Below are positions 42,750-44,359 of a stretch of DNA of 64,000 nucleotides, one piece after another. The stretch's first letter is position 1; every line of letters starts with the position of its first letter. The notes below the pieces were generated by a model. That model worked only from the letters and a program-made list of their open reading frames with translations. It was not told where the DNA came from and ran no database searches. The stretch is from contig JBDQPD010000004.1 in NCBI GenBank assembly GCA_040260805.1, forward strand, positions 6,219-70,218. Reading direction: 5' to 3'. The position numbers and the translations under genes were made by a program. The DNA comes from Myxococcota bacterium (GTDB lineage: Bacteria; Myxococcota; UBA4151).

Positions 42750-43850
42750 TCAGCGGATGTTGCGGATCGAGGTCATGCTCATGTCGTGCATGGTCTTCAG
42801 GATGTTCGAGATCAGATCGTGCATCTCTTTGCGCTTGTTCATCGCCTGCTGAATCTTGAAGTTCAACACGCTCTTCGAGTGGTCTTTGTCACCGCCAGCT
42901 TTGCCGCCGCCCATGACGCCTTGGCCGACTGCGCCGCCGATGCCTTGTCCGAGCTTAGCGCCCAAAGGACCACCGATCATGCCACCAAGGATACCACCGC
43001 CTGCTTGGAAGAGCTTCGAACCGACGCTCTTGAACATGTTCTTGATGCCGCCAAAGAGGCCGCCCTTCTTCTTCTTCTTACCCAAAGCTTCGTACTTCTT
43101 CATCAAGCCTTCGAGTTCTTTGTCCGCTTCACGCATTTGGGTGAAGAGGAACGCTGCGAGGCGATCTTCGATCGAGCCGCCGGCACCGACGAGGGCGCTC
43201 ATGTCACTTTGACCCGAGCCCTGTTGGCCCATGATGCTGTTGCCGATCTTCTGACCCGCTTTCTCGACGAGGCTCGCCAAGTTCTGGTCCATGCGAGCGA
43301 GCGATCCGAACAAGGTTCCAGCCATGGGGTTCATGGCTGCCATGCCAGCGCCCATGCCGAAGCCGAGATGCGGCGGGACAGCGCCCATCTGGTTCTTGAC
43401 CACGGTGATGCGACCGTCAGCGCGACCGTCAAGGACGATGCGACCACCGATCATACCTTCCATGCGATTGCGGAACGCCGGGTTGCGCATAATGGCACGC
43501 TCAAGCGAACGAGCAGCGCGGCGGCTACGACCCATTTTGAGGTCACGGACCTCTGTGCGGGTGGTGCCGAAGGGATTGCTGTAGGTGTTGCTGTGCAGTA
43601 ACCGGCTGCGACCAAGCCCGCGGCGGGGGCTCTGCATGCTGAACGGTTTGGGCAGCTTGCCAATCATGGCGTCAAAGCCTTGCGTCGGAAGACCCGAGAA
43701 AGCGTCCTGCATGTTGCGGAAGTAGCCCGCCAGGTTGCCCGTCATCAGGTCGACGTTAGCGCCTTGAAGATCACCCACCATGTCAGGGTAGCCCAGGCTA
43801 TCCAGCATACGGTTCAGATTGGTACCGAGGGAGTTGGCTCCAATGACCAT
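42750..43850 (-). CDS. Gly/Met-rich, Cys-free secreted-type protein (harpin/translocator-like); C-terminal helix resembles T3SS needle-protein C-termini
   Basis: 366 aa, no Cys, Gly-zipper-like hydrophobic stretches (GGGILGGMIGGPLGAKLGQGIGGAVGQGVMGGG), K-rich patch, C-terminus ...LISNILKTMHDMSMTSIRNIR (cf. PrgI/MxiH ...DAAIIQNFR). Immediately downstream of TPR chaperone-like gene. Confidence 0.6.
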   Translation of the reverse strand: MVIGANSLGTNLNRMLDSLGYPDMVGDLQGANVDLMTGNLAGYFRNMQDAFSGLPTQGFDAMIGKLPKPFSMQSPRRGLGRSRLLHSNTYSNPFGTTRTEVRDLKMGRSRRAARSLERAIMRNPAFRNRMEGMIGGRIVLDGRADGRITVVKNQMGAVPPHLGFGMGAGMAAMNPMAGTLFGSLARMDQNLASLVEKAGQKIGNSIMGQQGSGQSDMSALVGAGGSIEDRLAAFLFTQMREADKELEGLMKKYEALGKKKKKGGLFGGIKNMFKSVGSKLFQAGGGILGGMIGGPLGAKLGQGIGGAVGQGVMGGGKAGGDKDHSKSVLNFKIQQAMNKRKEMHDLISNILKTMHDMSMTSIRNIR

Positions 43851-43915
43851 TGTGTTCTCCTATCATCGGGCATTTCACGCCCAGGGTTTGGTTTGTTCAC
43901 AAGCTGTATCGGTTG

Positions 43916-44359
43916 TTATGCTTGTGGGGTTGCGGCCTCAGCTAATATTTTTTTCAAGAAAAGAGCAGCGTGCTGGCCACCAGCTCCTTCTGCTTGGTCG
44001 CATGCGATGCGCAAGTCCGTACCTGCGCCCTGCCCATCGCCCAGCTGCAGCCGCAGGCGCGCACGAGCGACGCGCAGGCGAGCATCACCAGGAGATACCT
44101 TTAGAGCATCGTCTAAATACGACAACGCCTCTTGATGTGCGCCACGCTCGGTCAGCATCAGCCCCAGCAAACGAAGAACCTGGGCGTTGCTCGGGTCCAG
44201 AGCCCTGAGCCCACGCAACATCACCATCGCTTCATCGCTTCGACCGTTCTCATGCAAAGCCAGCGCATCGTGACACAAAGCAGCAAGCGCTGCCGGGCTA
44301 TGCCCACGCAGTTCAGCCAGGGTGCTGCGGCCCTCGATCAGGTCTCTCGCTGCGCTCAT
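43916..44359 (-). CDS. TPR protein, LcrH/SycD-like class II T3SS chaperone candidate
   Basis: 147 aa, three TPR-like repeats, size and position (upstream of putative substrate) as in lcrH-yopBD. Confidence 0.5.
   Translation of the reverse strand: MSAARDLIEGRSTLAELRGHSPAALAALCHDALALHENGRSDEAMVMLRGLRALDPSNAQVLRLLGLMLTERGAHQEALSYLDDALKVSPGDARLRVARARLRLQLGDGQGAGTDLRIACDQAEGAGGQHAALFLKKILAEAATPQA

Follow-up and report, generated by a model that had tools for sequence, protein, structure and literature searches.

Downstream of sctU, on the minus strand of a 64,000-nucleotide stretch of contig JBDQPD010000004.1 from an uncultured marine Myxococcota bacterium (hereafter the window), lies a gene at 42750-43850 whose product of 366 amino acids (aa), labelled X here, we read as a putative exported and chaperoned type III secretion system (T3SS) component, of needle-tip or translocator-like kind, and not as the needle itself. 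We give this reading a probability of roughly one half. On profile evidence, the last ~140 residues of X (~224-366) are homologous to the complete helix-loop-helix of the needle protein SctF, and a tetratricopeptide repeat (TPR) protein of class II type is encoded just upstream. Elsewhere, X relatives open T3SS clusters that hold a needle-like gene of their own.

The C-terminal module of X and the needle

An earlier note, made from the letters of the window, had likened the last ~25 residues of X to the polymerisation helix of needle subunits. The protein does end in ...MSMTSIRNIR, and the likeness proved to be broader than proposed, spanning residues ~224-366 in hhalign comparisons. In an alignment of 82 X-family members the module consists of a first helix of ~30 residues and a second of ~40, joined by a loop whose length varies from 8 to ~130 residues; the shortest form, with 75 residues, is needle-sized. 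The consensus of its C-terminal helix reads S-N-x-[LM]-K-x-[ML]-H-D-x-S-M-x-x-I-R-N-I-R.

Compared with a set of seven canonical needles, two of which (YscF and MxiH) had been confirmed to be 100% identical to annotated genes, the module reached an hhalign probability of 93.3% (E 2.7e-7, 69 columns). Both helices match without a shift in register, the loop coincides with the PxxP turn of the needles, and the alignment runs to the C-terminus; module columns 8-78 align to YscF 19-87. With the verified YscF and MxiH alone the probability was 63% (P 7e-5), and YscF as a single sequence in a Yersinia set scored 34%, while YscG, YscI, YscE, YscX, YscY, LcrV, LcrH, YopB and YopD each gave 1% or less. 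Reversed needles served as controls and yielded 0.1%, and 30 column-shuffles did not exceed 3.2%.

Profile searches of 177,635 PDB sequences point in the same direction. The top match was 7y6c_F, with E 0.045 for the whole-family profile and 0.016 for the C-terminal profile; the depositor name of this 43-residue chain is that of the co-chaperone, and from reading its sequence we take it to be a needle-protein fragment. The C-terminal helices of SipD and IpaD came next with the C-terminal profile, at sub-significant E-values of 1.2-4.7, and six of the 11 profile matches listed were T3SS needle or tip proteins. The Pfam needle model PF09392 (T3SS_needle_F) weakly matches 6/19 close members, and one X homologue carries a precomputed match to it. 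At the extreme C-terminus of distant members the same model gave E-values of 3.1e-5 (P0146), 1.2e-4 (P0163) and 3.5e-3 (P0135); its threshold of 29.4 bits is missed even by the best family member, P0146, at 24.5 bits.

Composition and domain layout of X

Most of what had been noticed about the composition of X was borne out. The protein contains no cysteine (P = 0.017 at the local frequency of 1.1%; 0/32 neighbouring genes are Cys-free), is rich in glycine (16.4%, z +4.4) and methionine (7.9%, z +5.9), and carries both the lysine patch KKKKKGG (residues 258-264) and a glycine-zipper-like stretch, in which 17 small-xxx-small motifs were counted over residues 258-320. The supposed richness in alanine did not hold, because alanine, at 7.9%, lies below the local background of 10.9%. 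X is strongly basic (50 K+R vs 27 D+E), its highest 19-residue Kyte-Doolittle window, 1.07, lies in the Gly-rich loop, and no Pfam or NCBIfam model matched it.

Ahead of the needle-like module (Table 1), the N-terminal domain follows the consensus GTxLNRxLDxLGxPDxxGDxxGA..D..GN..G..RN..D..SGL.T and is a candidate secretion or chaperone-binding region; its profile found no solved relative in the PDB. A flagellin-like pattern at the very N-terminus (MVxGxNSLGT vs flagellin INTNSLS) was considered and dropped, the PDB profile search having yielded spurious cytochrome matches alone. The central alpha/beta domain is the sole part of X that AlphaFold2 (AF2) modelled confidently, with a predicted local distance difference test score (pLDDT) of 72-87; its fold matches were weak and non-significant, the best including YbjN/AmyR proteins (probability ~0.5), and it is missing from the ~270-aa short forms borne on phage-like contigs. 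Within the module itself, E228 and K244 of helix 1 are invariant, as are G294, P295, G297 and G305 of the loop, whose core reads LGGMxGGPxGAxLG. This Gly-rich loop weakly resembles the glycine-zipper families C19orf12 (3.3e-4, 7/19 members) and Bacteriocin_IIc.

A class II chaperone-like partner in an operon with sctU

Both open reading frames (ORFs) described in the earlier note, that of X and that of the 147-aa TPR protein, were found again on the minus strand at the same positions. They are the last of four packed ORFs in the order sctU, orf142, TPR gene and X, with stop/start overlaps of 4 nt at the sctU/orf142 and orf142/TPR junctions and a spacing of 65 nt, including a GGAG site ahead of the X start, between the TPR gene and X. 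These four genes form a single operon that ends in a terminator-like hairpin. Since X has homologues, and since the TPR gene and X keep a conserved order and lie in one operon with sctU, both are real genes. The identification of sctU is secure: the product matches PF01312 with E 4.1e-115 and TIGR01404 with 369 bits against a cut-off of 358, and the FlhB model stays under its own cut-off.

The TPR repeats that had been recognised by eye were recovered by Pfam (TPR_9 6e-10, TPR_19 3.7e-9), and the AF2 model of the protein (pLDDT 85.3) consists of 7 paired helices, or ~3.5 TPRs. The suggested resemblance to class II chaperones was likewise sustained by Foldseek, which ranked IpgC first, followed by SycD, AcrH and PcrH, all over the full length. 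The IpgC chain 3gz1_B aligned with E 1.2e-5 and template modelling (TM) scores of 0.77/0.80, and the corresponding TM values were 0.75/0.81 for SycD (2vgx), 0.80/0.78 for AcrH (3wxx) and 0.71/0.78 for PcrH; generic designed TPRs cover merely ~98 residues. At the sequence level, residues 10-133 align to positions 3-125 of the 136 in the LcrH_SycD model TIGR02552 (36.4 bits, E 3.6e-9), and PcrH (2xcb) matches over the full length with E 5.7e-4. Judged from its modelled fold, its size and its context, the TPR protein is class II chaperone-like, a sequence-divergent member of that group. The canonical class II chaperone-binding motif P/VxLxxP was not found in X by inspection.

The pairing of a TPR gene with X recurs at L009, twice at L015, and at L023. 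For the X-adjacent TPR proteins of L009 and L015, LcrH_SycD is the best-scoring family, with 76-83 bits (under the cut-off of 104.8 bits) and E-values between 1e-21 and 1e-23, and they match Yersinia LcrH directly with 46-52 bits. It is to these LcrH-like proteins of L015 and L009 that the window TPR protein is closest (BLASTP 42-48 bits, E down to 3.6e-11), as against 25 bits for an SctG-like TPR135 and at most 14 bits for YscY or YscG. An identity as SctY was rejected on the same comparison, the protein being far nearer to the LcrH-like proteins than to YscY, and its match to the SctY model (39 bits) lies under the cut-off. An identity of X as SctX was also set aside, hhalign giving the X module 1% against YscX.

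The X family and its genomic contexts

A word-indexed search returned 41 homologues of X at 31-98% identity. An exhaustive profile search extended the family to 1409 representative clusters at E <= 1e-3, with 427 at <= 1e-10 and 73 at <= 1e-30, so that we count ~1,400 X-family clusters at 50% identity. All named members are called 'hypothetical protein' and come from metagenome-assembled genomes (MAGs) or metagenomes labelled Myxococcota, 'Deltaproteobacteria' or 'Pseudomonadota bacterium'; no cultured organism, cultured myxobacteria included, was among the homologues found, and we found no published description of the family in the literature. Its alignment shows ~60 conserved residues at the N-terminus, then a central block that is optional, a conserved helix S-[IF]-E-D-[KR]-L-A.., a Gly-rich stretch of variable length and the conserved C-terminal helix; in some members the N-terminus is extended in diverse ways, by as much as ~600 aa. 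One such member, P0092 (L022:10001-11824), is a 607-aa protein on a Myxococcota-labelled contig with an extra N-terminal region of ~240 residues, in which a Cys...His pattern recalls CHAP/NlpC-type hydrolases; this is a reading of the sequence alone, and no Pfam model matched.

The order found in the window, namely metallo-beta-lactamase-fold (MBL-fold) gene, sctU, orf141-143, TPR gene and X, is kept on L005 and L006, which are Myxococcota MAG contigs, and on the metagenome contigs L010 and L011, the X of the latter two being 56% identical to that of the window. The window X lies on an NCBI contig of 71 kb, and the operon is also present on the Myxococcota MAG contigs JAYZBQ010000074 and JAPKCE010000032. 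Alignment-based locus scans yielded nothing, there being no conserved stretch of 7-10 columns. At L009, X (465 aa) and then two LcrH-like TPR genes lie ~2 kb from sctV-U-T-S-R, sctP (Flg_hook), sctO and sctN, flanking this sctV-U-T-S-R-P-O-N block. The presence of separate Flg_hook genes at L009 and L023 led us to discard the idea that X is SctP, the ruler.

At L015 and L023, X opens a full T3SS cluster. Next to it comes an LcrH-like TPR gene of its own (~210 aa), then genes of 91-94 aa and 82-86 aa, the latter needle-like, a TPR gene of 133-135 aa, sctI and sctJ, and after these the genes K, L, N, O, P, Q, R, S and T. The 133-135-aa TPR protein is SctG-like (HrpB1_HrpK-like, E 1.4e-6), and SctI is over the PF17001 cut-off with 32.6 bits. 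The 82-86-aa genes (L015:8528-8788 and L023:2398-2646) occupy the canonical sctF slot in the order E-F-G-I-J, and their products end in ...SNIMKARHDSAINAIRNFR or ...NAIRNVK (AIRNFR/AIRNVK type). To helix 2 of the X module they align with an hhalign probability of 98% (E 1.8e-13), X and the cognate small protein having the motif SN.MK..HD...AIRN.R in common, and BLASTP joins the window X to the 86-aa SctF-like protein of L015 with E 3e-7. The comparison of four such sequences with canonical needles was weak (hhalign E 0.014, probability 3%), and PF09392, NCBIfam and PDB searches did not recognise them. It is from their place in the gene order, their size and the motif that they have in common with the X module that we take these proteins to be the needle of their clusters. 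The existence of this separate gene argues that X is an extra needle-family protein that stands beside the needle and does not replace it.

Other features of the two clusters deserve mention. A paralogue, X2, of 348 aa is encoded at L015:3019-4065; it retains the central GG.I..D.R.DG block and a minimal hairpin of 75 residues, whereas the glycine-zipper loop is absent. X2 is accompanied by an LcrH-like TPR gene of its own, and a sigma-70 family gene separates the two X/TPR pairs. At L023:8548-10062 we noted a 504-aa protein with FHA, YscD-cytoplasmic-like and FliMN_C (SctQ-type) domains, which would be an unusual fusion within an X-led T3SS cluster.

Short forms of X on phage-like contigs

Short forms of X (269-275 aa), which are 56-64% identical to the window X over about half its length and do without the central domain, are encoded on contigs listed in IMG/VR, which reach 212 kb and have 41% G+C. 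The cassettes were located at L003:10001-12705 and L018:2107-3705, the reading frames overlapping in L018, and also at L001, L002, L012-L014, L019 and L020. Behind the short X comes a needle-like protein of 148-162 aa ending ...SNV[LI]K.K.DTAKNAINN[IV]R, and behind that an SctI-like protein of 122-135 aa (PF17001 E 0.006). The contigs further encode an intein-split DnaE, an IMPDH interrupted by Hint/NUMOD3, thymidine kinase, dCMP deaminase, homing endonucleases and an M23 peptidase, the gene of which adjoins X. Their viral nature is suggested by the IMG/VR listing and by this gene content. No T3SS apparatus gene was found near the short-X cassettes, no X homologue among 50,697 GenBank phage records and no match to X among viral structure models. 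That the short X travels with needle-like and SctI-like genes argues for a module derived from the T3SS, and not for the reverse. The contig of L018 also encodes, at 4622-9072, the DUF444-SpoVR-PrkA trio, usually met as a stress operon of bacteria.

A possible role for X and the alternatives

If X is a tip or translocator-like component, the TPR protein, possibly with the orf142 product, would hold it unassembled or monomeric in the cytoplasm, and the complex would be delivered to the SctU/SctV export gate, X being secreted after the needle. The X hairpin could then pack on distal needle subunits in the way of a needle protomer or of the C-terminal helix of a tip protein, and packed X might form a tip, a cap or a short filament. 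The N-terminal domains and the glycine-zipper loop would face the target-cell membrane, which X may perturb or perforate, and in this way X would join the tip and translocator roles.

Several observations weigh against such a role. In hhalign comparisons YopB scored 0.3%, and YopD and LcrV 0.1% each; X has no hydrophobic transmembrane segment, unlike the SctB/SctE translocators, and its AF2 model is poor as a whole (pLDDT 50) and found no fold match. The window X itself misses the PF09392 threshold, with 11.1 bits and E 0.48 vs 29.4 bits, just as the TPR protein falls under the TIGR02552 cut-off (36.4 vs 104.8 bits). Of the seven needle sequences behind the best hhalign score, two (YscF and MxiH) were database-verified, the other five being PrgI, PscF, BsaL, EscF and SsaG. 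Within the window sctU is the sole T3SS gene found, and in 6 of the ~12 distinct contexts covered no T3SS gene lies within 10 kb.

The last of these points would suit a secreted effector or toxin, a glycine-zipper permeabiliser of bacteriocin or harpin type that has kept the hairpin solely as an export or docking module and is no structural part of the apparatus, since stand-alone contexts far from T3SS genes, which make up half of those seen, are typical of effectors. The diverse N-terminal extensions across the family, the weak loop matches to C19orf12 and Bacteriocin_IIc and the harpin-like, Cys-free and Gly-rich composition could be read in the same sense. We nevertheless regard an effector as unlikely: such proteins normally use class I and not class II chaperones, no harpin or toxin family matched in Pfam or NCBIfam, the X2 protein of L015 has a hairpin and a chaperone of its own although it is devoid of the glycine zipper, and a complete, conserved hairpin of polymerisation type with the motif of the cognate needle fits poorly with a soluble toxin. 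That same hairpin, being SctF-like throughout, raises the question of whether X could be the major needle or filament subunit of its lineage, an oversized SctF forming an extracellular or periplasmic conduit. No separate sctF is visible in the window, the family combines conserved termini with a length-variable centre as flagellin does, and described myxobacterial systems have been reported without a recognisable SctF (PMC3459982). The window, however, is 64 kb of a genome, so the absence of sctF is not established; L015 and L023 do have a separate needle-like gene in the canonical slot, and the partner of X is a chaperone of translocator type and not an SctE/SctG-type pair. A needle role appears to us quite improbable.

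Far less credible are two further explanations. X might be a phage virion or ejection protein, tape-measure-like or membrane-penetrating, whose bacterial copies are domesticated or prophage remnants unrelated to the T3SS, as the short forms on IMG/VR contigs, the M23 peptidase gene beside them and a weak match to the tape-measure family phrog_167 (E 3e-4) could suggest. This origin is very improbable given that bacterial copies sit in T3SS operons in at least three lineages, that on phage-like contigs X keeps company with needle-like and SctI-like genes, that phage records and viral structure models returned no match, and that no prophage genes surround X in the window. X might, by contrast, never leave the cell and act on SctU as a cytoplasmic or inner-membrane export-gate regulator (a gatekeeper, a ruler or an SctX-like protein); only orf142 and the TPR gene separate it from sctU, and the TPR protein scores as well with SctY (39 bits) as with LcrH (36 bits). 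Such a regulator is hardly to be expected where a separate SctP exists, as at L009 and L023, where the module shows 1% against YscX, where the TPR protein has the fold of class II chaperones and its nearest relatives among them, and where the needle-type hairpin points to an axial, exported role.

Comparison with known systems

With SctF needles (YscF, MxiH, PrgI; PF09392) X shares the helix-loop-helix that runs to the C-terminus and the signature S-N-x-x-K...D...I-x-N-x-R. It differs in being four times larger than these proteins of ~70-90 aa, with ~220 extra N-terminal residues, in having a ~65-residue glycine-zipper loop in place of the PxxP turn, and in having a class II TPR partner instead of SctE/SctG. 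Gene position differs as well, the needle gene lying between sctE and sctG, upstream of sctI/sctJ, and the window X after sctU-orf142-TPR. Tip and filament proteins (SctA, i.e., IpaD, SipD and LcrV; EspA, Bsp22) resemble X in their size of 300-400 aa and their position at the cluster edge, and the C-terminal helix of X would be expected to dock on the needle lattice as theirs does. No significant similarity of sequence or fold was found between X and these proteins, the EspA Pfam model giving E 7.3 in 1/19 members. Known tip proteins have LcrG-type chaperones or are self-chaperoning, with no class II TPR partner, and to our knowledge none has a glycine-zipper loop.

The translocators SctE/SctB (YopB/YopD, IpaB/IpaC), like X, are paired with a ~150-aa chaperone of 3.5 TPRs and adjoin apparatus genes, and a presumed membrane-active segment is common to both; X differs in lacking hydrophobic transmembrane helices, and no translocator family of Pfam or NCBIfam matched it. 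We know of no translocator with a needle-type hairpin. Harpins (HrpZ, HrpN, PopA) are Gly-rich, Cys-free, T3SS-associated proteins of 300-400 aa that come from the Hrp systems of plant pathogens, are acidic and have no needle-like hairpin; X, in contrast, is strongly basic and has one. The likeness to harpins and minimal translocators put forward in the earlier note therefore stands as far as composition goes, and finds no counterpart in family matches or in a hydrophobic transmembrane segment. Overall, X would work most like a tip or translocator protein and is probably, in evolutionary terms, a needle derivative, and by the features that define SctF, the translocators and the harpins it appears to fall outside all three.

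According to published accounts, the T3SS of the predatory Myxococcus and Bradymonadia have no secretin, needle, tip or translocon (PMC3459982, PMC12075869, PMC11509652). The host of X belongs to the same phylum, Myxococcota, as the bearers of this 'needleless' T3SS*. The clusters of L015 and L023 are not of the needleless type, since needle-like, SctG-like, SctI and SctJ genes are present. Surveys based on hidden Markov models (HMMs) would score these two clusters as needleless.

No parts of the injectisome are less conserved than its tip and translocon proteins. For deep-branching systems, such as the ones of Myxococcota, a large family of chaperone-paired needle hairpins offers, in uncultured relatives, a concrete candidate for the distal component that has been missing, and a search profile of the X module can be applied to cultured predators. 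The architecture, in which a presumably membrane-active loop is set into the needle turn, is new. Needle genes of divergent sequence evade curated SctF models, and needle-family cassettes occur on phage-like elements. A wider and rather doubtful proposal would be that X defines, for uncultured Myxococcota and the 'Deltaproteobacteria' related to them, a new class of T3SS axial proteins, in which a needle-derived hairpin with a glycine-zipper membrane-insertion loop acts as a one-piece tip and translocon, possibly against bacterial prey; that some T3SS scored as 'needleless' in genome surveys may hide cryptic needles, since X travels with highly divergent 82-86-aa needle genes that standard SctF models miss; and that jumbo-phage-like elements carry a cassette of X, needle-like and rod-like genes, by which viruses would be able to supply or remodel distal parts of a host injectisome.

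Other features of the window

Table 1. Positions in the window of X, its parts, and the genes and signals of its operon (all on the minus strand).
Feature	Position	Strand	Description
sctU	44781..45857	-	358 aa; export-gate switch protein; first T3SS gene of the operon
orf142	44356..44784	-	acidic orphan; frame overlaps both neighbours by 4 nt
TPR protein	43916..44359	-	147 aa; class II (translocator-type) T3SS chaperone-like
Ribosome-binding site GGAGAA	43855..43860	-	4 nt (CACA) before the X start codon; read from sequence
X	42750..43850	-	366 aa, Cys-free, Gly/Met-rich; large unnamed family; needle-like C-terminal module
N-terminal domain of X	43662..43850	-	residues 1-63; 12 invariant columns over 14 diverse members
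Central alpha/beta domain of X	43386..43610	-	residues ~81-155, including the RSLERAI..GGRIVLDGRADGRITV block; optional
Helix 1 of SctF-like hairpin	43083..43175	-	residues ~226-256, SIEDRLAAFLFTQMREADKELEGLMKKYEAL; aligns to needle N-terminal helix (hhalign)
Lysine-flanked glycine-zipper loop	42882..43082	-	residues ~257-323; sits at needle PxxP turn position
Helix 2 of hairpin	42753..42881	-	residues ~324-366, needle-type C-terminal helix ...LISNILKTMHDMSMTSIRNIR
Intrinsic-terminator-like hairpin	42699..42728	-	13-bp stem, 8 G-C pairs, T-run; 22 nt past X stop

The relatives of orf142 were found solely in the lineage of the window itself (L005, L006 and L010, at 57-85% identity), and no Pfam, NCBIfam or PDB entry matched it. 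We compared it with YscE, with YscX and with the small ORFs of L015, and rejected each for want of similarity; it is possibly a co-chaperone or accessory protein. The autocleavage motif of the window SctU reads NPEH vs the canonical NPTH, and that of L009 reads NPTR. Within the window, sctU stands apart from all other T3SS core genes.

The surroundings of the operon comprise the MBL-fold lactonase-like gene, three AIM24 paralogues, an nqr operon and genes for Cys-rich repeat proteins. At 45861-48817 (minus strand), the MBL-fold gene, which is YtnP-like, stops 3 nt before sctU and is preceded by the three paralogues (AIM24/TIGR00266) in tandem; the linkage of the MBL-fold gene with sctU is kept at L005, L006 and L010. 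Cysteine-rich repeat proteins are typical of Myxococcota. Two large proteins of secreted type, encoded on the plus strand at 39671-42418 and 49816-52278, flank the operon region, one with nine MopE-like Cys-rich metal-binding repeats and two SRCR domains, the other with 15 myxobacterial cysteine-rich acidic repeats.

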